The notes below the pieces were generated by a model. It was not told the origin of the DNA and searched no databases. It saw only the letters and a program-made list of their open reading frames with translations. Below are positions 14,503 through 30,970 of a DNA stretch of 64,000 nucleotides, in pieces. The stretch covers positions 59,219-123,218 of the IMG/VR virus record IMGVR_UViG_3300037851_000461; one strand, given 5' to 3'. Within the stretch, counting starts at the first letter, position 1. Every line of letters begins with the position of its first letter. The position numbers and the translations under genes were made by a program. This DNA comes from a virus. Taxonomy: Duplodnaviria; Heunggongvirae; Uroviricota; Caudoviricetes.

Positions 14503-16125
14503 TTAGAGCCCATCCGTATCTGGTTCAGTATTAGCATGATACGGAATGTTATTTTTCGCTGCTATCTGTCTCCATGCCTTCTCCAACTTCGACAAAACGT
14601 CATATTCCTTGTCGGAAAGGTTGTTAACGCTGCCCTTTTTCTTTACCAGTTCAAGCATCTGACGGAGGTATCGACGAATCATCTTCTCCTTATCATTAAG
14701 CACGATTTCGGAATCTCCCGATGGAAGACGCTTCTTTTCTACTCCGGGTGCCTTCAAATCCTTTGCCGGTGTGCCAGCCATTTGACCAGAGCCACCTTGA
14801 AATACAAGTTGCACTCCGTTGTCTGGCTTTCTATATGCCACCATTGTCCATCCACCGTCGCTCTTGTAGACCACACGATTTCTCTTTTGTGCTACCGCTG
14901 GAAGAATCATGAAGTAGTTGACCCACTGAAGAAATCTCTTCGGCTGTTCGATGATCTGTGATGAGAGGTATCTAAACTCCACTGTGCCTCGCTCAAAGAA
15001 TGAACCGATGTTCGTTCCCATGAATTTGCCAGATAGAACGTTGATTAGTTTCTGAAACTGGTCTTCATTCAAATCCATCGACTTTCCGATTATGGGAATG
15101 TTTCTGCCCGGAGGTACGGGAGATTTCTTGATGAGGAATTTGATGATCTGTTCGTAGAATGCATTTCGCAACGCGGCCCACTGCTCGAAATTTCTCTTCG
15201 GTCCTGCATCAACTTTGATCGCAGATTCGTCAACGAGTGTAATCATAGCAAGCAAATCGAAGTAATCGAAGTCGGCGGGTAGACCGATGTGAACGTGTGC
15301 ACTTGTATTTCCCGAGGTTTGATATCCGTTGTAGGCTATCATGTTCATGAATCTCTCCATGAGGTTGAAATCCTTCTTCTCCAAGTGAGGAGTTCGGATT
15401 TCCACATTATCACCATCTTCACCTACACCCCATTCAGTTTTAGAGGCTTGACCGGAGTTGCTTACTCTCTGTTGGTCGTTCTTCAACCATCTTGTGATTT
15501 CAGTTCTTATCGAAATTGAGTTGTTATCGTTGGAATCTCCGTCCGAAATCTCATTATACAAATGCTGCGTGTCATGAACGTATCTGGTGATTTCCTCTCG
15601 ATTCTGAAGTTCGTTGACATACTCTTCTTTGTAGTTGTTCGATCCGTTTCGATCCCAATTACGATACTCCCACTCAATGTCAGACTTTGAATCCGACCAT
15701 TTCGACATTGCGTCTTCATATGCTTCTGCGTCTTCGAAGTCGCTTTCATCGGGCTCGGGGTTGTTTTCCAACCACGTGTCTACGTCAATGGGTCCGTGAG
15801 CATCATTCCACATATTTCCGTATGACCTACGATTGTCATTCTCACGCGTTTCTTTCAACCATTCATCGTAATCCCATTGGAACGACTGCTTATCACCAAA
15901 TCGTTCAATGTATCGCAACAGGGTGTATGCGTCAGCATTGGCGATTGCATCGGTAAGGGTTCCATCATCCGGCCCCATGTTCTCCGGTGTCAGTTCTATC
16001 TCAACACCAAATGTGCCCGGTCCGTATGTTTGTTCCGGTCCGTGTTTTTTCAACATGCCTGCTTCCACATCGGGCGCTTTGGCAAACGGAACAACTTCGT
16101 TGACTTTTTTTATAGGTTGGGGCAC
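14503..16125 (-). CDS. glutamine-synthetase-like amidoligase (Amidoligase_2-type), 540 aa
   Basis: Motifs GVEIELTPE, TSAHVHIGL and GTVEFRYLSSQ typical of GS-fold amidoligases; GTG start. Confidence 0.6.
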   Translation of the reverse strand: MPQPIKKVNEVVPFAKAPDVEAGMLKKHGPEQTYGPGTFGVEIELTPENMGPDDGTLTDAIANADAYTLLRYIERFGDKQSFQWDYDEWLKETRENDNRRSYGNMWNDAHGPIDVDTWLENNPEPDESDFEDAEAYEDAMSKWSDSKSDIEWEYRNWDRNGSNNYKEEYVNELQNREEITRYVHDTQHLYNEISDGDSNDNNSISIRTEITRWLKNDQQRVSNSGQASKTEWGVGEDGDNVEIRTPHLEKKDFNLMERFMNMIAYNGYQTSGNTSAHVHIGLPADFDYFDLLAMITLVDESAIKVDAGPKRNFEQWAALRNAFYEQIIKFLIKKSPVPPGRNIPIIGKSMDLNEDQFQKLINVLSGKFMGTNIGSFFERGTVEFRYLSSQIIEQPKRFLQWVNYFMILPAVAQKRNRVVYKSDGGWTMVAYRKPDNGVQLVFQGGSGQMAGTPAKDLKAPGVEKKRLPSGDSEIVLNDKEKMIRRYLRQMLELVKKKGSVNNLSDKEYDVLSKLEKAWRQIAAKNNIPYHANTEPDTDGL

Positions 16126-16138
16126 AACCTATAAATAT

Positions 16139-16348
16139 TCACTTGTAAACGATTTCCACCGAACCACGCTTCACATATTGAAGCCAATCGGATCGATCAC
16201 CGGCAGTAATCGCAAGAAACAAGTTTGCCATGGCTATTTCTTTAGTCTTTCCATCGCCACAAGGAGGCGATCCCGGCAAATCCAAACAATCGGCACGATA
16301 CATCACACCGGTTTCCCGGGTACGGTATTTTTCAATTTGGATTTTCAC
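16139..16348 (-). CDS. HicB-like (UPF0150) small protein, 69 aa
   Basis: YRADCLDLPGSPPCGDGKTKEIAMANLFLAI matches the HicB/UPF0150 core pattern. Confidence 0.5.
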   Translation of the reverse strand: MKIQIEKYRTRETGVMYRADCLDLPGSPPCGDGKTKEIAMANLFLAITAGDRSDWLQYVKRGSVEIVYK

Positions 16349-16754
16349 TCTTCTGTCTTTCCCGTGCGGCGTGATACCACTTGTAGTTAGTCAGAAGCAT
16401 CTTGATGTTCTCTCTTCCAATAGGATTCATTGAGTGAACATTGAAATCGGGGAGAGCCAATTGCCGGTCATCACAATAATGAACTAACCACTTGGCTGCA
16501 TCCATACCCGTTTTCTCTTTGTACGATTCGTAGGGGATTGTGCGGGGGTTGGTGGTGCCTCCCTTGGGTTCGTTAAAGGGATAGTGCTCGTCGGCTAGAT
16601 CGTGGTCAAACGACACGATTTCGGGAAGACCGTTCTCTGTGATGATCTGAACAAATTGTGCATAGTTTCGGGCAATCTTCCACTGTGCGTCAAATGTGAG
16701 AGGAAACACAACTGACGGTCTGCGCACATCATCTAAAAATAGCATGTAGCTCAT
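16332..16754 (-). CDS. hypothetical protein (140 aa from ATG at 16754); ATGA overlap with the upstream gene stop
   Basis: N-terminal MLFLDDVRRPS; ORF-track start extended to 16805. Confidence 0.45.
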   Translation of the reverse strand: MSYMLFLDDVRRPSVVFPLTFDAQWKIARNYAQFVQIITENGLPEIVSFDHDLADEHYPFNEPKGGTTNPRTIPYESYKEKTGMDAAKWLVHYCDDRQLALPDFNVHSMNPIGRENIKMLLTNYKWYHAARERQKSENPN

Positions 16755-17266
16755 ACAGGATAGTCGGGATGAACTTCCTTGAGAGCACGGTCGATTTCCG
16801 CCCAATCAGTCTTCCAATTGAATCCTGCCTTGTCGTCAAGGAGGATGTTGAAGTAAAACTTTCTCTCGAAGTCGCAGAGTTCCGTGTTCGGGCACTCCGG
16901 ATTCTCGTTCACGTAGTCGAACTTGATGCCTTCGCTTTCAAGCCACTTCAGGATATCCGCCACCGGCTCTTCATGGCTGCTCGTCCAGAGAATCAGCCCG
17001 GAATCTTCGCGTCGAAGACCATCAGCCTCGCCGGTCAGAAAGCGTAGAACGCGACCGGCATAGGGTGCCAACTTGCGACCTTCATTGAACTTGCTGTAAG
17101 TGCCCTCGATGATAACATCGTGTAAGTCGATGCACCAGAACAAGGTCTTCCAGCCGCGAACGTTCTTCTGCTCGTAAGTTCTCTTGATTAGATCGTAGTA
17201 TGTGCTCATGTGGGTAGATTGCCGTCGTTTTTCTATTCTGTCAAGCGATTTCTTCAATCGCTCCAC
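16751..17266 (-). CDS. putative HAD-like hydrolase (divergent); ATG at 17209, GTG at 17266
   Basis: CIDLHDVII, LILWTSSH and NILLDDK segments resemble HAD motifs I, II and IV. Confidence 0.4.
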   Translation of the reverse strand: MERLKKSLDRIEKRRQSTHMSTYYDLIKRTYEQKNVRGWKTLFWCIDLHDVIIEGTYSKFNEGRKLAPYAGRVLRFLTGEADGLRREDSGLILWTSSHEEPVADILKWLESEGIKFDYVNENPECPNTELCDFERKFYFNILLDDKAGFNWKTDWAEIDRALKEVHPDYPV

Positions 17267-17453
17267 TATCCAGCCAAAAGTGAAGGGCGGAAATCATCTC
17301 AATGGATTCTTTGCGACTGCCGTCTTTTCCAATGAGCCAAATCGTGTGCTCATTCGCTTCAATGATTGTTCCTTCGCCATACATGAAGGATTGTGAATCC
17401 TGCGGAGTCAAAAAAGTGAGGAGAATCTTGCCGATTACTTTGTATCTTTTCAT
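17241..17453 (-). CDS. small hypothetical protein, 70 aa
   Basis: ORF positioned between the NADAR and HAD-like genes. Confidence 0.3.
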   Translation of the reverse strand: MKRYKVIGKILLTFLTPQDSQSFMYGEGTIIEANEHTIWLIGKDGSRKESIEMISALHFWLDSGAIEEIA

Positions 17454-18004
17454 AGTGGTGTCAGCCCGTTTTCCGGAACATGCTTTACCGAATCTCTGAT
17501 ATACATCAGGATGCTTCCGAGTTTGTTCTGCCCGCCCTTGCGAACGTCAACGCCCCAATAGGTATCGCCCCAATGGTTTGTTTCTTCGAGGTGCTTCTTT
17601 CCGGTTTCAAGGAGTTTCTTGCGAAGGTCATTATTTCGCATGAACTTGTCAAAGACGACATAAAACATTACCGAGTATTTGACCTTATCCCACTCATCGG
17701 CGGTGTATCGCTTAGTGAATCGCTCTTCCTGCCAGAGATTCTTGCTCTCGTATGGAGTACAAAGTTGGAAAGGCTCACGCTGGTCTTCGACGACCTTCGC
17801 TGCTTGATAAGCATTCTCAGAGGAGACGAATCCCAAAAAGTCATAGTGAACTTCGCATACGTGGAAATTGGAGAGCCAGCGGTAATCTCCAAAGAATCCC
17901 TTGATCTGCTTGTCGTCGTGAACGGCATAGGATCGCCAGTCACCTTTCTTGTATGTGCCCTTCGTTCCGTCAACTCCGATTTCGTCGAATAGCCAATCGC
18001 TCAT
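17450..18004 (-). CDS. NADAR (YbiA-like, DUF1768) domain protein
   Basis: FFGDYRWLSNFHVCEVHYDFLGFVSSENAYQAAK...HWGDTYWGVD...NKLGSILMYIR. Confidence 0.75.
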   Translation of the reverse strand: MSDWLFDEIGVDGTKGTYKKGDWRSYAVHDDKQIKGFFGDYRWLSNFHVCEVHYDFLGFVSSENAYQAAKVVEDQREPFQLCTPYESKNLWQEERFTKRYTADEWDKVKYSVMFYVVFDKFMRNNDLRKKLLETGKKHLEETNHWGDTYWGVDVRKGGQNKLGSILMYIRDSVKHVPENGLTPL

Positions 18005-18492
18005 GGTTTGAAAATCTCCTCAAGTTTACGCCAGTGAGAAACCTGAATGCCTTCGTCAAAACGGGTGTGAACGAACACATCCATCTGATTTTCCAGCATG
18101 TCAGAATCGTCATCAATGATGGCGTATTTCTTTACTTCCGGGTGTCTCGACAACCATTCAGCAATCTCGTCGCCACGAACCTTTCCGTCGCAATGGCGAT
18201 AGATATCCTTCGTTCTCCAATCCGGATGGATGTAATTCATCAAGTCATACTGCTCCAGATTCCGGCGAAGGTCGGAGTTGTAATGACACCTCTCCTCTTC
18301 GGTCTTTGCACAATTCAAGTCGGAGAAAAATCTCCACGTTGAAGAAATGACGATCTTAACGTCAAACTCTTCACAAATGCGAGCGATAATTTTCGCACCG
18401 ATGGGATCGAATCCATGCCGGTCTTCCAGACGAGCGAGAAACGTTCTCGTCGTAACCATCACGCCGTCGATATCTAGGAAAATGACATTCAT
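18001..18492 (-). CDS. HAD-family phosphatase
   Basis: Motif I FLDIDGVM and motif IV IIDDDSDM. Confidence 0.7.
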   Translation of the reverse strand: MNVIFLDIDGVMVTTRTFLARLEDRHGFDPIGAKIIARICEEFDVKIVISSTWRFFSDLNCAKTEEERCHYNSDLRRNLEQYDLMNYIHPDWRTKDIYRHCDGKVRGDEIAEWLSRHPEVKKYAIIDDDSDMLENQMDVFVHTRFDEGIQVSHWRKLEEIFKP

Positions 18493-18493
18493 A

Positions 18494-19243
18494 TCAGCAC
18501 CAGTAGGTATAGATCATTGGAACGAGGTTGTTGACTTCCAGAGGGTCTTTGAAAACGTTGAATGTTTTGCAGAACTGACGGATTGAATATGGAACCATGG
18601 GAACCATATCTGTGTAAAGTTGCTCCATCGTAGTAATTCCAGATGCATTCAGGTCTGCAATTGCTTTGTCGTTGAAGATTTCCTCAAGCGTCTTGGTTAA
18701 TCCCTCACGCTTGTACATATCTCTGATGCGGCATATCTCAGTTGAATGATAAATCAACTTTCCATTCTTTCTGTTGACGTATAGAGCATGTGGATAGATG
18801 GGGCAAGGATACCCACTTCCATCCGTGATAATTTCCACATTATCCTTCGGGCATCTTCCCGCCTTGTAGTAATCGATAATATCGTCATGACGATACCAAT
18901 CATCACACTCAATCGGAACGAAAACCAGCGGTGCAAGTCGGCGACCTTCAAAAGCGTATCCAGACATATGAATGACATCGTACACCGTGAGATGTGTCAT
19001 CGGCTTTTTCTGCTCGTACCAACCCGTTCCATTGATTCTCTGAAGAATCATGCTGGCATCCGTTTGTGTAAACGAATCATCATCCTTAGTGGATGCCACC
19101 TTTTCAATGTCGGATTTTAATTCTGGCAAGATATCTCCACGATCCTCGTGCCACAATTTCAGAAATTCGTCAGTGAAACGAGGGTCTTTTTGCTTGACCT
19201 TCTCAAACCCCCAACCCATTGCAATGTTGATTCGTATTCCCAT
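18494..19243 (-). CDS. hypothetical protein, 249 aa
   Basis: Long ORF in the operon; no recognised motif. Confidence 0.45.
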   Translation of the reverse strand: MGIRINIAMGWGFEKVKQKDPRFTDEFLKLWHEDRGDILPELKSDIEKVASTKDDDSFTQTDASMILQRINGTGWYEQKKPMTHLTVYDVIHMSGYAFEGRRLAPLVFVPIECDDWYRHDDIIDYYKAGRCPKDNVEIITDGSGYPCPIYPHALYVNRKNGKLIYHSTEICRIRDMYKREGLTKTLEEIFNDKAIADLNASGITTMEQLYTDMVPMVPYSIRQFCKTFNVFKDPLEVNNLVPMIYTYWC

Positions 19244-19244
19244 G

Positions 19245-19574
19245 TTATTCGGCTGTAATAAATTCAGCGGTTATGGTTGTCTTCCAGTGGTTGTCAACTT
19301 TCACGGTCTCTTCTTTGTACGTTCCCTCGACCCATCGCAATCCGACTTCGTGGAATAGATTGAGGGCAAATTTCTTCGACGATTCGGCAGTTTCTCCAAT
19401 CCCGACAAGATGAATTACCATCGTTCGGCTGGGTACGGTGTGAGTTATGGTCGGAACGGGTTCGTCGGCTCTATGGCGGATTACTCCAACCGTAATAACG
19501 ACGGAAACAACCATCGCTATGGCAAAAAAGACGACTTGTGAAATAAAGGTTCGTGCTTGCATTTTAATCCTCAT
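19245..19574 (-). CDS. small membrane protein (ATG at 19574)
   Basis: Predicted transmembrane segment FISQVVFFAIAMVVSVVITVGVI. Confidence 0.35.
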   Translation of the reverse strand: MRIKMQARTFISQVVFFAIAMVVSVVITVGVIRHRADEPVPTITHTVPSRTMVIHLVGIGETAESSKKFALNLFHEVGLRWVEGTYKEETVKVDNHWKTTITAEFITAE

Positions 19575-20202
19575 GGGAGCACAGGCAATTGTGCTCCGGT
19601 GTTCCACAGATATGGCAGAAGCCAATTGTTTGGCAATGGGTATCTACCTTCCTGACATACCATGTCGGAATGTTGTCTTCAGTTGTTGTTTGAATCTCAG
19701 GCTCGTAGAAGAAATCGCGAACTGCCCGTTCTACTTCAACGAGATTCTTACGAACAAATGAATTCTTGAAATCGTGCCCGGCGATGATGCCACCGACTTC
19801 AATCAATGGCCACCAGTTGAATAGGTCGTTTGCCACCGACCGATAATCGTGTCGGGCATCCAAATAAACAAAACTCAGCGGGGCTCGTGATTGAATGAAG
19901 TGCGTAGCCGTGCACATCGGCGAAAATGTGCGAAGGATGACACTCCGCTTTCCAAATCGGCGAAGTTTCTCTTGTGTGATGGAGTAGCAGCGATTGTGTT
20001 CGGCTTGCTCGACATTGCTCTTATCCATCTTCACTTCAGGCTGATAGGTCCACGGGTCAATGGAAATGAGTTCCCGACCATTCCAGTTGTCAAGGATGTG
20101 CTCCGAGAACGAACCCTCGTGGACGCCGACTTCCACCCCAACACCCGTTAATTCAAGGGAGTTAAGTAGTTGTGGAAAGTCGTTGCGGGTCTTGAGGGTC
20201 AT
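19564..20202 (-). CDS. class I SAM-dependent methyltransferase (TylF/MycF-like) with C-terminal Cys cluster
   Basis: VGVEVGVHEGSFS, FVYLDARHDY, GGIIAGHDF; C-terminal CHICGTPEHNCLC. Confidence 0.6.
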   Translation of the reverse strand: MTLKTRNDFPQLLNSLELTGVGVEVGVHEGSFSEHILDNWNGRELISIDPWTYQPEVKMDKSNVEQAEHNRCYSITQEKLRRFGKRSVILRTFSPMCTATHFIQSRAPLSFVYLDARHDYRSVANDLFNWWPLIEVGGIIAGHDFKNSFVRKNLVEVERAVRDFFYEPEIQTTTEDNIPTWYVRKVDTHCQTIGFCHICGTPEHNCLCSHED

Positions 20203-20489
20203 AGGAGAACTTCTCTGGCTAAATTGATGATATGGTTATAGTCGCCTTCTACGGATTTGTCAACATGACAAATGTAGTAAAACTTTCTCTCTCGGCGTTT
20301 ATCACCAGCCCATACCCCGATGGTTTTGCTTTTGGTCAACCATTTGACCAGCCACGCGCCGTTTACAACTTCATCACCACGAATGAGAAGCGAAATATCC
20401 TTCTTATCCCGAGAACCGAACAATCGCCTTCCAGAAGGATTCTTCCGATCTACTGGAAATCGTGCGTCGGTCTTCATATCAGAGCACAC
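20199..20489 (-). CDS. hypothetical protein, 96 aa
   Basis: ORF in operon. Confidence 0.35.
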   Translation of the reverse strand: MCSDMKTDARFPVDRKNPSGRRLFGSRDKKDISLLIRGDEVVNGAWLVKWLTKSKTIGVWAGDKRRERKFYYICHVDKSVEGDYNHIINLAREVLL

Positions 20490-20836: not shown

Positions 20837-20844
20837 GGTATTGG

Positions 20845-21502: not shown

Positions 21503-21889
21503 TCATCGACGCCGAAGGTCTGAGGCATAATCACTGTTGGGGGATGGTTCAACGTACCCGTAGCCCAAATCACCACGAGGAACCCCCTGTGGCATGTCAA
21601 TAGGCGTCAGAACCATCGGTTCATCTTTCTTATCGGGCGGTTGACTTACCCGACTACCATCACGAAACGCCTGTGCGGTCAAATCCTTCATTTGGATAAG
21701 ATCGTCAAGTGATAGGTTGTGATGATTCTCGACGTACGCTTCAATGGCTCCGATCAAATCACAGAGTTCGCAGAGAATAAGCATCTTGGCTCCCTGACTG
21801 CTTGCGTCAGAAAGTTCCATATACTCTTCGTCAATCTTGGAAAGTTCTCCCAAGACGCCTTTTGGAATGTCTCGTGTGTGGTATCCCAT
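21503..21889 (-). CDS. MazG-like nucleotide pyrophosphohydrolase
   Basis: LSKIDEEYMEL...KMLILCELCDLIGAIEAY pattern of the all-alpha NTP-PPase fold. Confidence 0.5.
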   Translation of the reverse strand: MGYHTRDIPKGVLGELSKIDEEYMELSDASSQGAKMLILCELCDLIGAIEAYVENHHNLSLDDLIQMKDLTAQAFRDGSRVSQPPDKKDEPMVLTPIDMPQGVPRGDLGYGYVEPSPNSDYASDLRRR

Positions 21890-21890
21890 G

Positions 21891-22472
21891 TTATTTTTCC
21901 TCTATGCCGAATTTCTGTTTCACCATTGTCAAACGGGGTTCGGCAACGCCCGTGCCATAAATCCAGCGAAGGTGGTCGCACTCACGAATGCCGTAACTTC
22001 CGAGTTCGATTCCCTTGTAAACAATGTCGTATGAATGCTTTTCGACCGGAGTTCGGTCAACCAACAAGTCGGGCGTGTCTTTCGACAATCCCAATGAATC
22101 CAAAAAGAACATGTACGCATGGTGAATCATGTTATGAAGGGATTCTTCGTTGACGACTTGGGTATCGATCAACTCCGTCTTGATGAAATACTTTGTGTGA
22201 AGTGAGTCGAAGTTTTCATGACGGAAGCACGGTGTCGTTGCCTGAAACTTTCCTTTCGGCAGAAACCCCTTCAGGTAGAGATACAGAAATGATTGTTCTG
22301 CCGAAGCAACAAGAACCTTACCATTGTCATGAACAAGTTGAAACTCTCGTGCACCCTTGGGCTTTGTGATATCGGAAACTTCCTTGGTCACCGTCCACGG
22401 GGCTTCGATCCGCTTGAACCCGCACTGCTCGTAATGTCGAATTGCGTCTGATATGGTTTCGTAGTTGATCAT
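21891..22472 (-). CDS. class II aminoacyl-tRNA-synthetase-like / AsnA-like catalytic core (193 aa)
   Basis: Motif-2-like TPCFRHENFDSLHTKYFIKTE and motif-3-like GIELGSYGIRECD. Confidence 0.45.
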   Translation of the reverse strand: MINYETISDAIRHYEQCGFKRIEAPWTVTKEVSDITKPKGAREFQLVHDNGKVLVASAEQSFLYLYLKGFLPKGKFQATTPCFRHENFDSLHTKYFIKTELIDTQVVNEESLHNMIHHAYMFFLDSLGLSKDTPDLLVDRTPVEKHSYDIVYKGIELGSYGIRECDHLRWIYGTGVAEPRLTMVKQKFGIEEK

Positions 22473-23454: not shown

Positions 23455-24129
23455 TCATTCTCCGTATTTCTTGGCTTCTTCTTCGCCGAAACGGCTCTTG
23501 AGTGAATCTAAATACTTCTGTGTCTTGATCTTACACATCCAAACTCCACCGGCAAAGGCTCCGGATCGCTCCGTTCCCTTGCACAGAACGCCTTCTTTAA
23601 CGTCGTAAACTCCTGCACGAACGTCACTTATGAGTTTGTCGGAGAGGTTTCCAGTGTAAATTACCCTTGGCGTTTTGACAATAGTGGCACATTGCTTGAG
23701 AAACTCTTGTGGCGTCAAAAACTTACTGACCTTGTGCCCTATCATCAAATCGAAAAGAACAAATTCCATAGGGTCTCCAGCGGCGTGTATTCCGGCATAG
23801 GAGTTGGGTCCCAGATACTCCCCGAAGGCTATTGCCTCCCGTTCGTTTCTATAGTCATCCCGAAGGAGTTTTTCCAACGGCTCGCTGAACTGGTTCATGA
23901 AAATATCCACCACCCCACCCAAATGCGGATGGGTCTTGTCAATCAATTGGGTTCGACTGCCAAAGAGGTTCCAGCCCTTCTTGGCGGTGTATTTTACCCG
24001 AATGTTTGACCCGTCGAGTTTATCAAAGGCTATGCACGACTTGCGCGGAGCCTTCGACGAGTTGATAATTGATGGATACTCTTTCACTATGCCAGTTTTA
24101 TTGGAACATGTGTCGAACGTCAAGCCCAA
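23455..24129 (-). CDS. ligase-family nucleotidyltransferase (RNA/DNA ligase adenylyltransferase domain), 224 aa
   Basis: Motif I AFDKLDGSN, motif IV EGVLCK, motif V MCKIKT. Confidence 0.55.
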   Translation of the reverse strand: MGLTFDTCSNKTGIVKEYPSIINSSKAPRKSCIAFDKLDGSNIRVKYTAKKGWNLFGSRTQLIDKTHPHLGGVVDIFMNQFSEPLEKLLRDDYRNEREAIAFGEYLGPNSYAGIHAAGDPMEFVLFDLMIGHKVSKFLTPQEFLKQCATIVKTPRVIYTGNLSDKLISDVRAGVYDVKEGVLCKGTERSGAFAGGVWMCKIKTQKYLDSLKSRFGEEEAKKYGE

Positions 24130-24567: not shown

Positions 24568-26136
24568 TTAGACGGCAGCGTTCTTGCGAACTTCGTCGAA
24601 GGTGTATGTCTTGGTGACTTCGCCGTTCTCGAACACGGTTTCAAGAACGTCGGGGCGAGGATCGCTCTCCGGAACGGTATCCCAGCCAAGACCGTGTGCA
24701 CCAGCCACACGAACCAACTTGAGACGACCCTTCTTCGAAGCCTTGCTCAAATCCTTCGGGTTCTTGAAAATATCGAACCAACGGTCGTTGCGCTTCTGTG
24801 CACAACTCTTGAAGGCGAACCTCTGCGTGTCGCGATTGACCTTCTGGAGAAGACCACCACCCATGCCGAAGCACGCGAGGTTGTCTGTGCTCAACTTGGC
24901 ATCCTTGAGAGCCTGAAGAATCTTGGTGATTCCATCAAGATCGATGCCGTCGCCCCAAAGAACACGAACCTTCGGGTTAATTGTGAGGTATCCCTTGTCG
25001 TTGACCGTGTAGCCGAGTTTGTCGGCGAGTTTCTGCACGATCCACACCATCTCGGCTTCCGGCGTCATGTGAGTCGGAGTGATCGAATCGGGGCGAACCA
25101 CGAAGATACCATCACGATTGAGAATCGCATTCTTGAACTTTCCACCAACAAGATTCTCAACGAAGTTGTAGATATCATAACTATCAGCAACGACCGAGAG
25201 AATACCAGTCGGATATTCACGAAGAAGGTTGTCGAGAACTTCCTCCTCACCATTGACACCGAGAGCGGTCATGACCGAGTGCTCAGTAGCAGCGACCGAG
25301 TAGGCAAGCCCCTCGGGATTGGCGCTGTAGTAGAACATCGCGAATTCCATGGCAGGAACCGTGTCGGTGCCCATGAAGTTGACCAAGTGAGCGGCACCAC
25401 CGACACATGCACCTTCGTCGGTGTTGACTCCACGGTAGCCGAAGTCGTGCAACTTGAAGTTGAGAAGGAAATCGACCGTGCCGGTTTCCTCAAGGAACTT
25501 CTTGATAACAACCTTCGTCTGACGGCTCAGAGCGGCGACCGTCGAAGGATACCATACGTGAGTCAAAAGCGACTCAAGTGCGTTGGTGAGCCAGAAGCAC
25601 TTCTCGTCGGTATTTTCAACCGTCATGAGAACGTTTCCGGTCGGCACCGGGGTACCCTCCGGAACTGCCTTGATGCGAACCGGGAGTTTTCCACCGTGAG
25701 CCTTGAGGATATGATTCCAACCGTTGAAGTTGAACATTTCCTTCTGACCCGTCTCGGCGAAGTAACGCTTCCAGTCGATACGGATTTCAGGATTGATAAC
25801 CTGACGGGCACCAATCTGCTGACCATCCGGCGTGAAGGTCGGAGCAACTGTCATAAGCGACAGGTGCTTGTTGAAGATGTACGGCGTGATCTTCTCAATG
25901 GTCGTCTGACCGAAGTGCAGAGCGACGAGAAGACGAGCCTGATTCAGTTTATCCTCCGTGACTCGCACACCTTCAAGGTAAGCCTTGAGGATGTACTGAA
26001 GACCGAAAAACGGGGTCTGGTCGAACTTCGCACCTTTGCGGCTCTCGAAGTAACTATAGACCGCCTGAGTTCCAGCGGGATACTGATTCCAGTGATTCAG
26101 TTTATAACTGTCAGTCTGTGTGATGATGTTAGTCAT
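24568..26136 (-). CDS. nadV: nicotinamide phosphoribosyltransferase (NAMPT/NadV)
   Basis: N-terminal TDSYKLNHW, overall PRTase pattern, 522 aa. Confidence 0.85.
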   Translation of the reverse strand: MTNIITQTDSYKLNHWNQYPAGTQAVYSYFESRKGAKFDQTPFFGLQYILKAYLEGVRVTEDKLNQARLLVALHFGQTTIEKITPYIFNKHLSLMTVAPTFTPDGQQIGARQVINPEIRIDWKRYFAETGQKEMFNFNGWNHILKAHGGKLPVRIKAVPEGTPVPTGNVLMTVENTDEKCFWLTNALESLLTHVWYPSTVAALSRQTKVVIKKFLEETGTVDFLLNFKLHDFGYRGVNTDEGACVGGAAHLVNFMGTDTVPAMEFAMFYYSANPEGLAYSVAATEHSVMTALGVNGEEEVLDNLLREYPTGILSVVADSYDIYNFVENLVGGKFKNAILNRDGIFVVRPDSITPTHMTPEAEMVWIVQKLADKLGYTVNDKGYLTINPKVRVLWGDGIDLDGITKILQALKDAKLSTDNLACFGMGGGLLQKVNRDTQRFAFKSCAQKRNDRWFDIFKNPKDLSKASKKGRLKLVRVAGAHGLGWDTVPESDPRPDVLETVFENGEVTKTYTFDEVRKNAAV

Positions 26137-26195
26137 TGTAGTGATTTCCTTATCTCTATCAGGTTTCTATATTGGCTGAACCCTTATTTGGTATC

Positions 26196-27233
26196 TTAGG
26201 TCTTCGCCGAAGTGTTTGTTTTACGTGCCCATTCGACGAGCATTTCCATCAGAGGAATGTGCTCCGGTACGATCGACCACGGAAGAGGAGTAATCGTCTG
26301 AGTACCGGTGTCGGTCTTGATCGTCTCCTGTTTCTGGAGGAAGTTTGCCAGAGGAAACCAGCGCACTTCCGCAATATCGTCATCTGCCCGAGCCATGCCG
26401 AACAAGCGGTGGGCAAGGTAGAAGTGAGTGATGATCTTGTCAGTCTCGCCGCGATAGCGCCAGTCGTCGATCTTCTTACTACCGATGTAGGTCAAGTCTC
26501 CGACCGAAAGCCCGCCTGCGGTCTCTTCATAGAGTTCACGCTTGGCAGCGGCTTCGTAACTGTCATCATTCGGCGAAACGAATCCACCAATGAAGCGGTA
26601 CAACTGCTCATTGGGTTTGCGAGCCAGAAGGATCGAACCTTCCTTGTCGTCATACACCACGATATCCACGGTCGGGATAGCAGCGGGATAACGCTGGTGT
26701 GTGGCCCAGATTGCACCGGCTCGGAACAAAGGCGAGGATTGTGGAGCCGCAGCGAGTTTGGCTCGTGTCTCCGTTCCCGAAACAAATCGGGTGGCGACCA
26801 ACTCACGGGTCTCGAAATGACCCTTGTAAGCGGTCAGGAAAGAATCACGGCTACCGTAGAGAACGGCGGTGTCATTGGGGGCAAGGTTCTCATGGATAAG
26901 ACCATCGAGTTTCTTGCTCCAATCCTCGTCCGACGCCATATCCTTGATATAGTGGATCGAGAGATTGGGGAAATCCTTGGGAGGATAGACCTCCATAAGC
27001 ATCTGCTTACGAGGATTGAAATCCAGCGGGTTGCTGGTAGTGCCCCGGAGGGGCGAAAGCCCAAGAACGATCATGACCTTGGGATGTGCAGCGATAACGC
27101 TGTCGATTAACTCTTTATGAGCCTCGTGGAGTTCGTGGACCTGAAAACGTCCGACGACTACACCTACGTTGTGTGCTTTTTGTTTCACGTTCATATCTTT
27201 ATCTGAATGTTGATTGTTTGGTGTCTCAGGCAT
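26196..27233 (-). CDS. natV: bifunctional NMN adenylyltransferase / Nudix hydrolase (NadM/NatV-like)
   Basis: GVVVGRFQVHELHEAHKELI NMNAT motif and Nudix box GGFVSPNDDSYEAAAKRELYEETAG. Confidence 0.85.
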   Translation of the reverse strand: MPETPNNQHSDKDMNVKQKAHNVGVVVGRFQVHELHEAHKELIDSVIAAHPKVMIVLGLSPLRGTTSNPLDFNPRKQMLMEVYPPKDFPNLSIHYIKDMASDEDWSKKLDGLIHENLAPNDTAVLYGSRDSFLTAYKGHFETRELVATRFVSGTETRAKLAAAPQSSPLFRAGAIWATHQRYPAAIPTVDIVVYDDKEGSILLARKPNEQLYRFIGGFVSPNDDSYEAAAKRELYEETAGGLSVGDLTYIGSKKIDDWRYRGETDKIITHFYLAHRLFGMARADDDIAEVRWFPLANFLQKQETIKTDTGTQTITPLPWSIVPEHIPLMEMLVEWARKTNTSAKT

Positions 27234-27738
27234 CTAAATCGCCTTTGACATCACCAATAAATAGGGAACAGGCTCGCTTGTCAAGCCGTTTTCCCCACTT
27301 TTTGTATTTTTTACACTAAGGAGGGGGTGGAAAGTCGTCTGATTTGACGTTTTCCATGGGGAGGTTTCCCCGAAGTTTTTTTACAACTTCCCCCGGTCTG
27401 TGTGGAGCCGTGACCGTAACGGAAGCCATTACAATGGCTTCTCCCGTTCTTTTACGATCCCTCCGCGCCTTGGATTCTGCCCAAAGCGCGGAGTTATCTT
27501 CTTTCATGTAGTCTTTTGTCATCCTACCAGCCCACAAACTTTGCGACCGAGTGGGGTAAGGCGTGATATTGGAACTTTTCCCAAAGCGACGGCATCACGT
27601 AGCCGAGCCTCTTCCTTAACTTGTGCTGCCTTGTCGCGACAGTCAACACAATCCATATCAAACTCAACTTCCCAAAATCCGCGAACGTGGCGTTGGCATG
27701 TTGGGCATAATGCTGGAAGTCGGGTGTTTCGCATGAGA

Positions 27739-28512
27739 TTAAAACAATACTCGAAATCCTCCACGAAACTCGTTCCATTCCGAATGAATATCGTCGTTGA
27801 GAAATTGCTCAAACCCGCGAGCAAAGCCAACAAACAGAGCAATCGGTCCGACCGTCACATCAGCATCCGCGCCGACGTAGTAAGTGTCATTCTGCGTTCC
27901 TTCAACGAAGTTGTAGCGGAAGTATGGATTGATCTGAAAGTAATCATTCCCGATAACCACGCCAATTTGCTCGAATCCCACCCACGAAGAATACGAATCC
28001 GATGCACGGAATGGATCGGTGTCGTCATACCACAAGTCGCGAACCGTCACAGTATCCTTACCGAAGGCATGACCAATGCCTACCGTGATATAAGGCGTGA
28101 AGAGATTGCGCTCGGTGTAAGCCGGTGATCCAACAACGGGCGAATACGTTCTTGGAAAGTAGAACGATCCGAACACGGAAATCGTCTGAACCTTGCTTGT
28201 GTAATCAATATCAACCACACTCGGAAAGAGGGGAAGATCAAACGCGCCATCGCTGTAGGAATAGATTCCACCCACATCCGCCCACTCAGCAACCGGAACG
28301 TTTGCGGCGACGGCGAAAGTGTCGATGGAACGGTCGTAGTCAAAACTTCCATCGGGAATATTCAGTTCAAACGAGCCAGCGTTTGAATACATGGCGGAAA
28401 CGGAACGTTCCCCCACGATAGTCTGAGCACTTGCCTTAGAGGCAAAAATGCTGAATGCCGCCATCATGAAGAAGGCGAGAAGTAGATATAGCCATGTCGA
28501 TCTGCTTTTCAT
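27739..28512 (-). CDS. outer-membrane beta-barrel protein with signal peptide
   Basis: Signal peptide MKSRSTWLYLLLAFFMMAAFSIFASKASAQT, alternating aromatic strands, C-terminal ...GGFRVLF. Confidence 0.55.
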   Translation of the reverse strand: MKSRSTWLYLLLAFFMMAAFSIFASKASAQTIVGERSVSAMYSNAGSFELNIPDGSFDYDRSIDTFAVAANVPVAEWADVGGIYSYSDGAFDLPLFPSVVDIDYTSKVQTISVFGSFYFPRTYSPVVGSPAYTERNLFTPYITVGIGHAFGKDTVTVRDLWYDDTDPFRASDSYSSWVGFEQIGVVIGNDYFQINPYFRYNFVEGTQNDTYYVGADADVTVGPIALFVGFARGFEQFLNDDIHSEWNEFRGGFRVLF

Positions 28513-29174
28513 AGTTTGTCTTTCTTTGGATAAGGTTCTGTCAAACGGTAGTGCTTACCATCGTATTTGTGTAATTGGAACATTTGGCAGTTGTCGGGGT
28601 TCTTCATCGTTTCAAATTCCTCGACCGTCAAGTGAAGCCAGCGCATCAGAAGAACGCGAAGGGAGAAGCCGTGAAGAACAATCAACACGTTGCGCGGAAA
28701 CTCGGGATTCTCGAAATCGCGATAAAGCGTGTCAAGGAATCCTGTGCAGCGGTCATACACATCCGCGCCAGATTCTCCAAGCGGAATTCTGAAGAAGAAC
28801 GTGCCGTAGTTGTTTCTATCGAATTCGACCTTTTCACTTCCACCGGAAGTTCCGAGGTTTCCCCATTCCTGCTCTCTCAGGCGAGGGTCTTCACGCTCTC
28901 GTTCAATGTTGTATGAAGGAACATCCATACCGAGTTTCATGTTTTGCCATGTCTCGCGAGTGCGCAGATAAGGAGAAACATAAACGGCAAGACGATCCCG
29001 AAGAAATCCACCAAATTGTAGTTTTCCCCGCAAGAGTTTTCCGGCTTCAACCGATTGCTGTTTTCCAACCTCGGTGAGCGGAATCTTGTAGTCGGGCACC
29101 GTGTAGTTCACAGAGTTGTCAACGTTCGACGCAGATTGCCCGTGTCGAATTAGAAAAATGTTGTCGGGTCTCAT
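28509..29174 (-). CDS. histidine phosphatase (phosphoglycerate-mutase superfamily)
   Basis: FLIRHGQSASN RHG catalytic motif; HGFSLRV. Confidence 0.7.
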   Translation of the reverse strand: MRPDNIFLIRHGQSASNVDNSVNYTVPDYKIPLTEVGKQQSVEAGKLLRGKLQFGGFLRDRLAVYVSPYLRTRETWQNMKLGMDVPSYNIEREREDPRLREQEWGNLGTSGGSEKVEFDRNNYGTFFFRIPLGESGADVYDRCTGFLDTLYRDFENPEFPRNVLIVLHGFSLRVLLMRWLHLTVEEFETMKNPDNCQMFQLHKYDGKHYRLTEPYPKKDKL

Positions 29175-29876
29175 AGTTTGGATTGGTTGGCAAGACGAAA
29201 CATGTCGTCTTCAACGGGTGACGCTTTCACTTCAGATTCAACGACCTTCTGTGGCTCCACCTCTGGTAGAACGTTATTCTTGGAATACTGAATCTGATTC
29301 ATTATGGTGATAAGGTCAGCCTTTTCTTTTAATTTGGTCTCGTGTGTGTCGCCACCCCACGAAATCACATCAAAGATATAGCGATGGTTGGAGTAGACCC
29401 AAGCGAAATCTTTCTTCTCACTCCATTCGAGTGGGTAAATGATGTTCACCGACTTGTCGTCAATGGCACAGAGCGATTTCACCGCTGCCTCGAAGTGAGG
29501 TCGGAAGTGCCAGAAATCGTCTCCACGAATGTATCCCATCTGAAGGTCGAAGTTGACGCCTCGATCTGTTACGAATGGAGGAAGCCCCCGCCCACGCCAT
29601 TGCCTGCGTGCCACCACAAGAATAAATATCCAAAACCGAATTGTAGAATTTGTAGCGCGAGTCGAATCGCGGCTCTCTTACCTTCAGAAGCTCGATGATT
29701 TTATCACGAGCCTCCAAATCCATGCGCATATTCTCAGCATTGGCATTCTTCAATTCAACCGTGATAACACGAATATCGGTGTAGGAAGAAGAGAGTGATT
29801 GTAGTAGAACAGCGGTTGAATCATAACCGCCCGACCACATGATCACAAGAATGTCACTTTGCTTGCGGTCGTTCAT
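29171..29876 (-). pseudogene. PP-loop ATP pyrophosphatase (QueC/ExsB-like) split by a frameshift near 29560-29617
   Basis: N-terminal ILVIMWSGGYDSTAVLL PP-loop in ORF 29460..29876; downstream ORF 29171..29617 in another frame continues the protein; combined length about 235 aa. Confidence 0.5.
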
Positions 29877-30207
29877 ATGATTTTCTCCATAATCTCCGGA
29901 GCCAACGGATCATCTTTACGATTCCGTAAATGAGCAAGCCCAGCACCACCAACAGAAAGACGATGCCGAGTTCTAATGCGACGGCATCATCCATTGACAT
30001 TTCCCACTTAGCAGAAATCTTTCGACCGAAGTAGTAGAACGGATAGCCACACACAAACATGAATCCTCCAACGACCGTCAACGCCACTAAAAGCATTCCC
30101 AACCCCTTGAGAAAGTCTAGGAATCTGTAGAATAGGTCTCCGAAGAGAATTGTGAGGAATCTACCGAAGCGTTTCATCAGAAATCCACCATGATTGTTTG
30201 TTCCCAC
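29854..30207 (-). CDS. small membrane protein (2-3 transmembrane segments)
   Basis: Hydrophobic segments LLVALTVVGGFMFVCGY and IVFLLVVLGLLIYGIV. Confidence 0.4.
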   Translation of the reverse strand: MGTNNHGGFLMKRFGRFLTILFGDLFYRFLDFLKGLGMLLVALTVVGGFMFVCGYPFYYFGRKISAKWEMSMDDAVALELGIVFLLVVLGLLIYGIVKMIRWLRRLWRKSYERPQAK

Positions 30208-30400
30208 TCAACATCGTGAAGATGCTCAATGGCTTCGTCTCTAACATCGAATTGGAATGGGCACACCTCATCATGAACGACGAGATTCCACTTATTGTTG
30301 TTGGCGAGCACAACCTTGACATATTCCACCGATAGATTTCGGCTCTTTGGCTTGCTCGCATCCAACTTTACCAGTTGGTTGATGATGGATTTCTTGATTC

Positions 30401-30970
30401 TCATGGATTGGCAACAAATTGCTGGAGGGCGTTTTCCTTTTGTGGAATCGGCATCGGCTTGAACTTGACGATGATAACATCGCCGGGATAGGTGTCAAAG
30501 GCAACCTCGATGAGCCTGCTGACGATGTTCCAGTCGCCACCGGCTCGGTCGCATCCCATTTTCCATGGAAATCCAACGGTGGGATATCGCCCGGTAGTCG
30601 AGTGTCGATATGAATCCTTGTTGAAGTATTCGTAGATGTACCGGTGCATCTTTTCGAGTGCGGTGTAGAGAGCGTCGTAGTTCGTCTGGCGAGCCTCACG
30701 CCCGAAGAGGTTCTGACCATAGAGATTGAAAATCATCATAAGGTCGTTCGGAACCGGCTTCGATGTAATGTTGCAATAACTCAGATGACCGAGTTTGTTG
30801 TGCCCCATCTTGGCAGCATTTGAATCCGCCTGATATGCCTCGGGATACCACTCTCGTACCGTCTTGGCGATGCCGGAACCCATTGTGTTCTGGCAATTGG
30901 CTTGGTGCCCGACAATGTGAATGTCGGGAAGAAGGAAAATGTCGCCATCAACGTAGGTCAATTCTTTCAT
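30401..30970 (-). CDS. macro domain protein (ADP-ribose binding / hydrolase)
   Basis: YVDGDIFLLPDIHIVGHQANCQNTMGSGIAKTV. Confidence 0.75.
   Translation of the reverse strand: MKELTYVDGDIFLLPDIHIVGHQANCQNTMGSGIAKTVREWYPEAYQADSNAAKMGHNKLGHLSYCNITSKPVPNDLMMIFNLYGQNLFGREARQTNYDALYTALEKMHRYIYEYFNKDSYRHSTTGRYPTVGFPWKMGCDRAGGDWNIVSRLIEVAFDTYPGDVIIVKFKPMPIPQKENALQQFVANP

Follow-up and report, generated by a model that had tools for sequence, protein, structure and literature searches.

A NARP2-type NadV-NatV pair among ADP-ribose-handling and RNA-repair-type genes of a probable T4-like phage

The window, a 64,000-nucleotide stretch of IMG/VR virus record IMGVR_UViG_3300037851_000461 (positions 59,219 to 123,218), contains what is probably an accessory arm, probably early, of a novel and distant T4-like phage, flanked by an ATP-dependent DNA ligase gene and an array of roughly 50 tRNA genes. 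Its relevant features are as follows.

612..13857, minus strand: array of about 50 tRNA genes (46 genes plus 5 further Rfam-only matches), next to the island on its downstream side, same strand; a tmRNA gene lies past it
16332..16754, minus strand: cREC, cyclic-phosphate-processing receiver-like domain (76.8 bits; LFLDD and FDHDL aspartates conserved); the likely start, M18 of ORF 16332-16805, overlaps the stop codon of the HAD gene that precedes it
16751..17209, minus strand: BT0820-family HAD-type phosphatase (33.8 bits, under the cut-off); the ORF runs to 17266, with the likely start at M20, and motif I, DLHDT, is atypical yet conserved
17450..18004, minus strand: NADAR domain protein, YbiA-type (Pfam 76.8 bits; best PDB match E. 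coli YbiA, 2b3w)
18001..18492, minus strand: HAD_SAK_2, a 'Swiss-army-knife' RNA-repair type HAD phosphatase (82.5 bits; DIDGV motif), overlapping the NADAR start by 4 nt
18494..19243, minus strand: u249, a conserved protein of unknown fold, ending 1 nt before HAD_SAK_2; the sole candidate for a 2H phosphoesterase, rejected as such
21503..21889, minus strand: all-alpha NTP pyrophosphohydrolase of the MazG/PRA-PH superfamily (80-aa domain and 48-aa tail)
23455..24129, minus strand: ATP-dependent RNA ligase, nucleotidyltransferase domain only (KLDGS motif)
24568..26136, minus strand: NadV nicotinamide phosphoribosyltransferase (NAMPT; Pfam NAMPT_N and NAPRTase, NCBIfam NF006629)
26196..27233, minus strand: NatV/NadM-type NMN adenylyltransferase with Nudix ADP-ribose/NAD pyrophosphatase
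28509..29174, minus strand: histidine phosphatase, branch 1 (His_Phos_1, E=2e-24)
30401..30970, minus strand: stand-alone macro domain, TARG1/DarG/Poa1p class
38258..42125, minus strand: second RNA-repair-like cluster, made up of the three genes listed next and of unknown genes
38258-38884, minus strand: calcineurin-like phosphoesterase of this cluster
38975-39916, minus strand: Band-7/SPFH protein of this cluster
41064-42125, minus strand: RNA ligase with PHA02142 OB domain, of this cluster
44925-45347, minus strand: stand-alone Nudix hydrolase, within the replication module (E=2e-16)

All genes named in a preliminary description of this DNA were found on the minus strand with correct coordinates, and their domain assignments hold in Pfam, NCBIfam, PDB and Foldseek comparisons, including those of the two HAD phosphatases, the Nudix gene outside the island and a 'MazG-like' protein, a name that is right at the superfamily level (the match is limited to the N-terminal 80 aa, with PRA-PH at E=0.014, and its homologs go by PRA-PH or NTP pyrophosphatase in name or annotation). 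Except for the outlying Nudix gene, these genes had been placed in one operon; they do form one co-directional chain from 32851 to 14503 with intergenic gaps of at most 82 nt, but promoter and terminator scans gave chance-level results only. Five core NAD/ADPr genes are packed into 14.6 kb, on a contig at least 123 kb long; a uniform placement model gives this a p of roughly 1e-3, which overstates the significance because accessory genes cluster anyway. Unrelated genes (OMP, methyltransferase, amidoligase, aaRS-like protein, DUF3228) are mixed in. The cREC gene, both RNA ligases, the calcineurin phosphoesterase, Band-7 and the downstream tRNA genes had not figured in the preliminary description.

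NadV scores 514 bits against NF006629 (curated cut-off, 405) and has an insertion of 54 aa, specific to its lineage, at residues ~81-134. NatV joins an N-terminal NMNAT part (motifs GRFQ..HEAH and SGTETR) to a C-terminal Nudix part (RELYEET motif; Pfam Nudix E=3e-16), and both parts align in the same order with the NadM-type structure 2qjo and the bifunctional NMNAT/Nudix models of NCBIfam; the protein falls far under the equivalog cut-offs of those models and is very divergent, tblastn matching just 8 phage records at E<=1e-5. NadV lies 59 nt downstream of NatV, and the adjacent pair is the one well-anchored functional unit of the region, matching the NARP2 salvage pathway to which it had been assigned. 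NARP2, shown experimentally with the KVP40 genes, cancels type I Thoeris, DSR2 and aRES (bioRxiv 10.1101/2024.02.11.579819; 10.64898/2026.01.28.702374) and overproduces NAD+ even in cells without a defence system (bioRxiv 10.1101/2024.02.11.579819). Identities to the relatives L101 and L106 are 87% and 66% for NatV and 49% and 82% for NAMPT; the histories of the two genes are mosaic.

Pfam does not detect the macro domain at E<0.01; its identity is backed by PDB sequence matches, by 269 homologs, several annotated with PF01661, and by an AF2 model (pLDDT 88) whose top Foldseek matches are TARG1, DarG and Poa1p. Poa1p gives the best alignment with the family profile, H22/N25/T29 falling opposite Poa1p H23/N26/S30, and an invariant Gln (Q86) stands where DarG has its catalytic Lys, K80 in TaqDarG. 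Because Gln replaces this Lys and the Poa1p His/Asn/Ser(Thr) residues are kept, the residue pattern points to a probable Adpp-like ADPR-1''-phosphate phosphatase (anti-aRES or by-product clearing) and not to a DarG mimic, at odds with the earlier suggestion of activity against DarTG. Adpp is the NARP1-associated Poa1p-like macro protein that converts ADPR-1P to ADPR and defeats aRES (bioRxiv 10.64898/2026.01.28.702374). The same residue pattern has been reported for the NARP1-adjacent Pakpunavirus macro (PMC12846349), and the window family HMM matches the Otagovirus NARP1-adjacent macro (128 bits) and a macro gene beside NAMPT-like and Prs-like genes in Pseudomonas phage UNO-G1W1.

The NADAR protein carries Glu in 'LEET' and is by sequence YbiA-type, neither T4 AdfN type (His) nor DarG1 type (Asp). 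The evidence supports the macro and NADAR proteins as real ADP-ribose-handling enzymes; removal of cyclic ADP-ribose, the Thoeris signal, had also been proposed, and no find bears specifically on its degradation. The best sub-threshold match of the histidine phosphatase is CobC alpha-ribazole phosphatase. HAD_SAK_2, cREC and the MazG-like protein would be at least as much at home in RNA-end repair as in counter-defence, and the literature assigns proteins of these types to phage RNA-end repair. The RNA ligase at 23455-24129, 89% identical in L101, sits between NadV and the MazG-like gene.

The NatV-then-NadV order is kept in 11 of 14 IMG/VR relatives and also occurs in L101, L106 and the unrelated jumbo phage Tunturi_5. 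This pair, usually with Prs, is the only stable linkage among relatives; most encode Prs, of which none was found in the window. The remaining genes recur nearby in shuffled order, and content around NadV differs greatly. Macro and NADAR genes recur near NadV, but the macro, NADAR, cREC and histidine phosphatase genes lie at varying distances and are missing from most relatives' 20-kb neighbourhoods. In 5/14 relatives NadV has a macro gene no more than 10 kb away, as against 0/86 loci seeded with other genes, an enrichment confounded by shared ancestry and by the use of this phage's own sequences as queries. The order is NatV-NadV-macro-Prs in L001 (its Prs is canonical, with 254 bits to solved Prs structures), and one gene separates the histidine phosphatase and macro genes in L101. 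In L106, u249 and HAD_SAK_2 directly adjoin NatV-NadV in an order different from that of the window. BT0820-type HAD homologs are found no farther than 10 kb from NadV in 8/14 relatives. HAD_SAK_2 homologs are near NAMPT in only 5/80 loci; in other viral contigs the neighbours of cREC homologs are dCTP deaminase, dNMP kinase and PolB rather than NAD genes.

We consider it rather probable that the region combines a NARP2 pair restoring NAD+, interleaved hydrolases of ADP-ribose derivatives and an overlapping tRNA/RNA end-healing set. The sequences themselves show that the genes are there, which domain families they belong to, the active-site pattern of the macro protein and how such genes recur around NadV in relatives; the substrates, the way tasks are shared among the enzymes and any effect on host defence are what we infer. 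NadV would convert nicotinamide and PRPP to NMN, and the NMNAT domain of NatV would adenylate NMN to NAD+, together refilling the pool destroyed by host NADase defences. The interleaved hydrolases would most likely turn ADP-ribose derivatives into harmless or reusable products: the Poa1p/Adpp-like macro protein may strip the 1''-phosphate from ADPR-1''-P, produced by RES-type NADases or RNA 2'-phosphate removal; cREC may open cyclic phosphates; the NatV Nudix domain may cleave ADPR to AMP and ribose-5-phosphate, which Prs could return to PRPP; and the YbiA-type NADAR may cut ADP-ribose from an N-glycosidic bond, perhaps that of guanine-ADPr in DNA. HAD_SAK_2, cREC, the MazG-like protein, the two RNA ligases, the calcineurin phosphoesterase and Band-7 would form the second, overlapping set for end-healing and sealing. 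The expanded NAD counter-defence toolkit suggested earlier is only partly supported. Because the region has proteins of RNA-end-repair types and an RNA ligase, and the array of about 50 tRNA genes follows directly downstream, a large share of that toolkit may not be NAD counter-defence.

It is unlikely, in our estimate, that the ADP-ribose enzymes chiefly serve NAD-dependent tRNA/RNA repair. Host anticodon nucleases would leave 2',3'-cyclic phosphates, ligation or healing would follow, and a KptA/Tpt1-like enzyme would move the 2'-phosphate to NAD+, yielding ADPR-1'',2''-cyclic phosphate for cREC to open, the Poa1p-like macro protein to dephosphorylate and Nudix to degrade as ADPR, while NadV and NatV replaced the consumed NAD+. 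Poa1p, which among characterised proteins is closest to the macro protein, acts in exactly that pathway, which is set out in section 3.7.3 of PMC9503650 and in PMC7824862. The window supplies cREC, HAD_SAK_2, two RNA ligases, the calcineurin phosphoesterase, Band-7 and an AAA_33 kinase, with the tRNA array directly downstream and the tmRNA gene beyond; tRNAs are present at 19/80 HAD_SAK_2 loci (at least 6 at 7 of those 19), and PTH2 recurs near NadV in relatives. However, Pfam detected no KptA/Tpt1, sirtuin, ART or 2H phosphoesterase in the scanned window ORFs and 8.7 kb past the left edge, with u249 dismissed as a 2H protein; the repair genes are spread across 40 kb, not gathered in one module; and RNA repair uses little NAD+, which alone would not account for a salvage pathway.

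Were NatV-NadV instead the sole functional unit, the rest would be independent accessory genes that pile up in a hyperplastic region of T4-like genomes, their apparent kinship reflecting how common ADP-ribose and phosphatase domains are in large myoviruses. The variable surroundings of NadV, the interspersed unrelated genes, the mosaic NadV and NatV histories and the uninformative promoter and terminator scans all fit this picture. We nevertheless think it decidedly improbable: the macro gene, near NadV in the relatives counted above, recurs in L101 and is immediately adjacent in L001; the same macro family adjoins NARP1 genes in unrelated Pseudomonas phages; u249 and HAD_SAK_2 stay linked to NatV-NadV in L106 despite rearrangement; and these domains co-occur above expectation in published statistics (PMC9503650). 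Very improbable, finally, is an auxiliary metabolic module supplying NAD+ for phage replication independently of host defence. NARP2 overproduction of NAD+ without a defence system agrees with it, as do the Prs, DHFR and nucleoside deoxyribosyltransferase-like genes next to NadV in relatives, but the DNA ligase encoded in the window depends on ATP and not on NAD, the gain demonstrated by experiment for NARP2 is protection from NADase defences, and the ADPr-hydrolase neighbours are left unexplained.

Among known systems, NARP2 of Vibrio phage KVP40 (Osterman et al., bioRxiv 10.1101/2024.02.11.579819; Nature 2024) likewise pairs an adjacent Nampt-type phosphoribosyltransferase and NMNAT-Nudix without Adps, with the same predicted chemistry (nicotinamide + PRPP + ATP to NAD+). 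The window differs from it in its very divergent NatV and NadV insertion, and from most relatives, where Prs adjoins NadV, in having none. With NARP1-AP of Vibrio phage Gary (Adps-Adpp-Namat; bioRxiv 10.64898/2026.01.28.702374) and the Pakpunavirus/Otagovirus NARP1-adjacent macro, the window shares a Poa1p-like macro protein that has the conserved His/Asn/Thr pattern and a link to phage NAD+ reconstitution. There the partner pathway is NARP1, whereas here it is NARP2, and the window macro, lying 9 genes (3.2 kb) upstream of NatV, therefore misses the 'within two genes' definition. Because NARP2 needs no ADPR substrate, the predicted role of the window phosphatase must differ from that in NARP1-AP, and because NARP2 alone already cancels aRES, the enzyme would be unneeded for rebuilding NAD+; its role may be detoxification, or recycling via the NatV Nudix domain and Prs.

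The stand-alone NADAR resembles AdfN, the antitoxin-like orphan NADAR enzymes of T4-like phages directed against DarTG1 (PMC11825919), but falls outside both the gp30.3/AdfN(T4) His clade and the DarG1 Asp clade. Every NADAR subfamily assayed to date hydrolyses guanine-ADPr in vitro (PMC11125620); antitoxin activity in vivo is subtype-specific (PMC11825919; PMC11125620). The macro fold is similar to those of the DarG antitoxin and the chimallivirus DarG2-like anti-defence protein (PMC5179494; PMC13309987), with a Foldseek E of about 6e-8 and a TM of about 0.77 normalised on the target against DarG; unlike DarG, the window protein has Gln at the catalytic Lys position and no DarT-binding C-terminal domain.

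A further likeness is to the viral NAD+-ADPr network neighbourhoods of Iyer, Burroughs, Anantharaman and Aravind 2022 (PMC9503650) and a jumbo-phage survey (PMC7824862). The shared domain set comprises NadV, NadM, NADAR, Macro, cREC, Nudix, HAD 'Swiss-army-knife', MazG, calcineurin and RNA ligases; PMC9503650 places NADAR, Macro, cREC and Nudix with NadV/NadM alongside RNA-repair components, and NADAR next to NadV/NadM is already stated in both. They offer the same two readings, one in terms of soluble ADPr signals or toxins and one in terms of by-products of RNA repair. The RNA-repair part of the window differs from those neighbourhoods in lacking a sirtuin or KptA anchor, and the window adds the His_Phos_1 phosphatase, the BT0820-type HAD and u249, none of them mentioned in the parts of the two surveys used here; no histidine phosphatase was found in PMC9503650. 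Such neighbourhoods are already covered by published surveys, and because the arrangement has been described for large phages, the region is a good example of it and not a new system.

The NAD/ADP-ribose island belongs to a compact gene block in which all genes from 32851 down to 14503 lie on the minus strand, with intergenic gaps of at most 82 nt and numerous 4-nt start/stop overlaps. A scan for consensus promoters and terminators, performed to test the description of the island as an operon, gave counts no better than chance. The 64-kb window derives from a metagenomic contig (JGI) of at least 123 kb, and Megablast found no close relatives of the island among 50,697 phage records. The family-B DNA polymerase of the phage is 41% identical to PolB of Microcystis phage Mel-JY01, and the window encodes an ATP-dependent DNA ligase, homologs of rIIA and rIIB, and an AAA protein resembling a clamp loader. 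A T4-like lineage is supported by the polymerase and by the rIIB match, and the phage is, judging from these genes, a distant T4-like virus. The following features lie outside the island:

612-13857, minus strand: array of about 50 tRNA genes, directly downstream of the island on the same strand
56559-57614, minus strand: rIIB homolog
57673-59841, minus strand: rIIA-like protein, 722 aa, with a GHKL ATPase match
59940-62093, minus strand: 717-aa protein with no assignment

The tRNA array comprises 46 genes called by ARAGORN and five found by Rfam alone (1106-1177, 2950-3021, 10498-10570, 10794-10877 and 11223-11299). Two calls are odd, one at 8049-8121 with a 2-nt 'anticodon' and one at 10997-11066 with a 4-nt anticodon (gttg), and small ORFs, including an HNH-endonuclease-like one at 3537-4034, are scattered through the array. 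L103, a contig of the same lineage (Logan SRR12687606) that extends beyond the left edge of the window, carries just beyond the array a tmRNA gene predicted by ARAGORN (6972-7353, about 2.8 kb past the edge) with the tag peptide AKSNLVKTNFLTSNVEELAAA.

All genes listed in the preliminary description are present, and every domain call proved right at the superfamily level or better. NadV, the NAMPT at 24568-26136, scores 514 bits against NCBIfam NF006629 (cut-off 405), matches Pfam NAMPT_N and NAPRTase and keeps the HDFGYRG region. NatV, the NMNAT-Nudix protein at 26196-27233, is divergent and scores far under the NCBIfam equivalog cut-offs, so its catalytic competence is a prediction; both of its halves are collinear with the Synechocystis NadM-type structure 2qjo and with NCBIfam bifunctional models, and its motifs GRFQ..HEAH, SGTETR and RELYEET are visible. 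No Prs- or Adps-like sequence was found by tblastn in the 64-kb window; association with Adps would instead define NARP1. With NadV, a NadM/NatV-type protein fused to Nudix and no associated Adps in the window, the pair is predicted to be of the NARP2 type, and this core is well grounded.

The N-terminal domain of NadV carries a 54-aa insertion (residues ~81-134), too short for an intein, that is absent from three related loci (L101, L001 and L008); the 519-aa NadV homolog of a fourth, L106, aligns end to end and appears to share it. Compared with L101, NatV is 87% identical and NadV 49%, while compared with L106, NadV is 82% identical and NatV 66%. The salvage pair is thus mosaic in its history, and these values suggest that one of its genes was swapped by recombination (allelic replacement).

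The macro domain at 30401-30970 required sensitive methods and is borne out by PDB sequence matches and by 269 homologs, some carrying PF01661. Its AF2 model (pLDDT 88) finds TARG1, DarG and Poa1p as best Foldseek matches (E from 1.5e-8 to 6e-7), which places the modelled fold in the Poa1p/TARG1/DarG class, and the family profile retrieves yeast Poa1p, an ADPR-1''-phosphate phosphatase, first (E=1.1e-7), tied with the M. tuberculosis DarG macrodomain. The nearly invariant H22 and the invariant N25 and T29 of the family align to Poa1p His23, Asn26 and Ser30, active-site residues of which the last is Thr in phage homologs (PMC12846349); the identical pattern, with the same Ser-to-Thr change, occurs in the NARP1-adjacent macro protein of Pakpunavirus Adele (PMC12846349). 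In the profile alignment, the Poa1p G33 position is Ser in the macro family, and the 'IFNFPTKKH' of Thermus DarG (5m31) lies opposite the family's 'ifnLYGQnl'. Since 'NFPTKKH' aligns with an invariant 'NLYGQN', the catalytic lysine, which we take to be TaqDarG K80 (a K80A mutant is mentioned in the literature), is swapped for glutamine at Q86. The macro family thus lacks the lysine of TaqDarG K80 and TARG1 K84.

Reversal of DarTG, one of the functions first proposed for the island, is disfavoured for the macro protein by this invariant glutamine and by the domain composition. The protein is a 189-aa stand-alone domain with neither a DarT-binding C-terminal domain nor a neighbouring DarT, no ART was found in the window, and the NCBIfam DarG model matches at residues 6-65 alone, with 27 bits against a cut-off of 250. 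Most likely, on its residue pattern, the macro protein is a Poa1p/Adpp-type ADPR-1''-phosphate phosphatase. Adpp, a macro protein of the Poa1p kind, turns the ADPR-1''-P that the RES-domain defence aRES produces into ADPR and so lets NARP1 beat aRES, which NARP2 alone already cancels (bioRxiv 10.64898/2026.01.28.702374); a phosphatase would therefore not be needed here for NAD+ rebuilding. Plausibly, it would instead remove a toxic metabolite, or pass ADPR on to the Nudix domain of NatV and thereby return ribose-5-phosphate to PRPP synthesis.

The location rule for Adpp, at most two genes from NARP1 (an Adps + Namat operon), does not hold at this locus, as there is no NARP1 in the window; the macro gene sits nine genes upstream of the NARP2 pair. 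In L001, a relative's locus with the gene order NatV-NadV-macro-Prs, the macro gene lies directly between NadV and a canonical Prs. The possibility that Prs-like genes beside NadV in relatives encode Adps, which would make a NARP1 hybrid, was rejected, since the L001 protein matches canonical Prs structures with 254 bits and its DLHSPQVGGF motif is intact. The macro family is widespread, with members in 2,835 phage records; in Pseudomonas phage UNO-G1W1 the macro gene adjoins NAMPT-like and Prs-like genes.

The NADAR protein (17450-18004) scores 76.8 bits against PF08719 (threshold 35.1) and matches 2b3w and 8bau in the PDB, with E. coli YbiA as its best structural relative. The window's 'LEETNHWGDTYWG' aligns with 'LVEHTENDAYWG' of YbiA. 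The clade-defining residue of the last strand is His in T4 gp30.3/AdfN, Asp in DarG1 and Glu in YbiA (PMC11125620); as it is Glu here, the protein falls outside the AdfN(T4) and DarG1 clades and is by this residue YbiA-type. Every NADAR subtype tested has hydrolysed guanine-ADPr in vitro, and DarT1 is neutralised by several phage NADARs that are unrelated (PMC11825919), so an anti-DarT1 role is possible; in-vivo specificity, however, depends on subtype.

Among the phosphatases, the His_Phos_1 protein and HAD_SAK_2 (18001-18492) exceed their Pfam thresholds, and the second HAD protein (16751-17266) is a sub-threshold BT0820-type phosphatase with a conserved atypical 'DLHDT' motif. The 'MazG-like' protein contains an all-alpha NTP-pyrophosphatase domain of 80 aa that is PRA-PH in type (superfamily level), and the distal Nudix gene at 44925-45347 is real. 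Besides a methyltransferase and a DUF3228 protein, the preliminary description had missed the following island genes:

14503-16125, minus strand: 540-aa Amidoligase_2 protein (weak match, 25.7 bits)
16332-16805, minus strand: cREC (76.8 bits), translationally coupled to the BT0820-type HAD gene
21891-22472, minus strand: minimal class-II aaRS-like core, 193 aa
23455-24129, minus strand: ATP-dependent RNA ligase, just downstream of NadV
27739-28512, minus strand: predicted outer-membrane beta-barrel, 257 aa, between NatV and the His phosphatase
29171-29876, minus strand: PP-loop ATPase with an SGGYDS motif and a weak QueC match

The Amidoligase_2 protein, whose N-terminal half is acidic and of low complexity, shows no obvious connection with NAD; its gene is the final one ahead of the tRNA array. 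The aaRS-like protein shows a motif-2-like 'CFRHE' and a motif-3-like 'GTGVAEPR'; its gene lies 1 nt from the PRA-PH/MazG-like gene, a pairing kept in L101. PDB sequence searches with this protein and with the small RNA ligase returned nothing significant. The beta-barrel prediction is based on a signal peptide together with an aromatic residue at the C-terminus, as is usual for outer-membrane beta-barrels, and L101 encodes a 66% identical homolog at the same position; such a protein would imply a Gram-negative (diderm) host. The PP-loop ATPase is encoded by two overlapping ORFs split by a frameshift at a G5 run, which may be programmed, mark a pseudogene or stem from a sequencing error; this block is missing from the syntenic L101, together with a TM protein (29854-30207) and a 75-aa ORF. 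Finally, u249, a conserved protein at 18494-19243, begins with an invariant MGIR and carries a W-x-R-[HY]-D-D-I-I-D-Y motif; its confident model (pLDDT 82, pTM 0.83) matched no structure in the PDB or BFVD.

We compared 14 IMG/VR NadV loci (NadV 56-60% identical, one 31%), counting neighbours within 10 kb of NadV.

Genes found near NadV in the compared loci
NatV: 11 of 14 loci
Canonical Prs: 11 of 13 loci
BT0820-type HAD: 8 of 14 loci
Nucleoside-deoxyribosyltransferase-like protein: 7-8 loci
Calcineurin-like phosphoesterase: 7 loci
PTH2: 6-7 loci
Macro: 5 loci
cREC: 4 loci
NADAR: 3 loci
His phosphatase: 2 loci

The NatV-NadV order is also found in the unrelated jumbo phage Tunturi_5, and non-core genes vary in position among the NadV loci. 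Of two closer relatives, L101 and L106, the former keeps the window's order from DNA ligase to u249, without the PP-loop block and u115. In L106, a single 6-kb run contains u249, the deoxyribosyltransferase-like gene, HAD_SAK_2, an unknown gene, NatV, another unknown gene and NadV; u249 accordingly occurs with HAD_SAK_2 and NatV/NadV in two different arrangements, and both u249 and HAD_SAK_2 have stayed linked to the salvage pair despite rearrangement. The macro family HMM hits 5 of the 14 NadV-seeded loci and none of 86 cREC- or HAD_SAK_2-seeded loci, a contrast confounded by relatedness.

An alternative reading is that the ADP-ribose enzymes serve NAD-dependent RNA repair, which requires an enzyme moving the RNA 2'-phosphate to NAD+. 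A large share of the phosphatases is compatible with tRNA/RNA repair, and a very large tRNA array adjoins; RNA ligases (23455-24129 and 41064-42125) occur together with end-healing phosphoesterase candidates, namely HAD_SAK_2, cREC and a calcineurin-like phosphoesterase. Comparative-genomic studies (PMC9503650, section 3.7.3; PMC7824862) count cREC, HAD_SAK_2, MazG, calcineurin, Band-7 and RNA ligases among the components with which phages repair RNA ends. Two features outside the island bear on this reading:

38258-42125, minus strand: calcineurin-like phosphoesterase, Band-7/SPFH protein, two unknown genes and an RNA ligase with a PHA02142 OB domain
55202-55714: AAA_33/Zeta-toxin-type P-loop kinase, 30 kb away, a possible candidate for a polynucleotide 5'-kinase

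The former cluster resembles the SPFH-associated systems that Burroughs and Aravind predicted to act in RNA repair. Among 80 HAD_SAK_2 loci, tRNA genes are present in 19, seven of which have arrays of at least six, and NadV lies nearby in only 5. The RNA-repair reading is nevertheless weakened, as Pfam detects no KptA/Tpt1, sirtuin, ART or 2H protein in the scanned ORFs of the window and 8.7 kb beyond its left edge, although the host or the rest of the genome could supply a 2'-phosphotransferase. The neighbourhoods of cREC homologs elsewhere, amid nucleotide-metabolism genes (dCTP deaminase, dNMP kinase and PolB), proved uninformative as an arbiter between the RNA-repair and NAD roles.

The NAD/ADPR counter-defence toolkit originally proposed for the island thus stands in part: the NARP2 core and a predicted ADPR-derivative clean-up function are well grounded, while the elements concerning DarTG, the Thoeris signal and a 'single toolkit' are not sustained. 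Extending the NAD reading, we put forward, as a doubtful proposal, an extended NARP2 and associated phosphatase loop returning the products of RES-type or canonical NADases to NAD+. The Poa1p-like macro protein would convert ADPR-1''-P to ADPR, which the NatV Nudix domain would cleave to AMP and ribose-5-phosphate; Prs would turn the latter into PRPP, NadV would combine PRPP with nicotinamide to give NMN, and the NatV NMNAT domain would complete the return to NAD+. The compact NatV-NadV-macro-Prs cluster of L001 would represent the minimal form of such a loop, with HAD_SAK_2, NADAR and the orphan-fold u249 as additional putative steps.

Much of the conflict between phages and bacteria centres on NAD+, and the locus offers an uncultured, divergent T4-like case in which a NARP2 pair lies beside a Poa1p/Adpp-type macro protein, a YbiA-type NADAR, cREC and several phosphatases. 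Should the macro protein act alongside NARP2 as an ADPR-1''-P phosphatase, phosphate-tagged ADPR would be worth clearing or recycling even without a need for ADPR as a substrate, which would extend the aRES/NARP1-AP story. The names of phage 'ADP-ribose' domains alone do not suffice to assign counter-defence, as the same set is predicted for tRNA repair. The practical value is modest, consisting of candidate enzymes (macro, NADAR, cREC, His phosphatase and u249) and no new principle.

Compared with known systems, the locus is a divergent example of an arrangement already described: Iyer et al. 2022 (PMC9503650) report NadV/NadM with NADAR, Macro, cREC and Nudix, together with both functional readings, and NARP2, Adpp and AdfN are already established experimentally. 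The novel angle, moderately novel, is limited to a Poa1p/Adpp-type phosphatase (with u249/HAD_SAK_2) linked to NARP2, not NARP1; a NARP2-linked Adpp would be new because the published NARP1-AP study examined NARP1 operons only (bioRxiv 10.64898/2026.01.28.702374).
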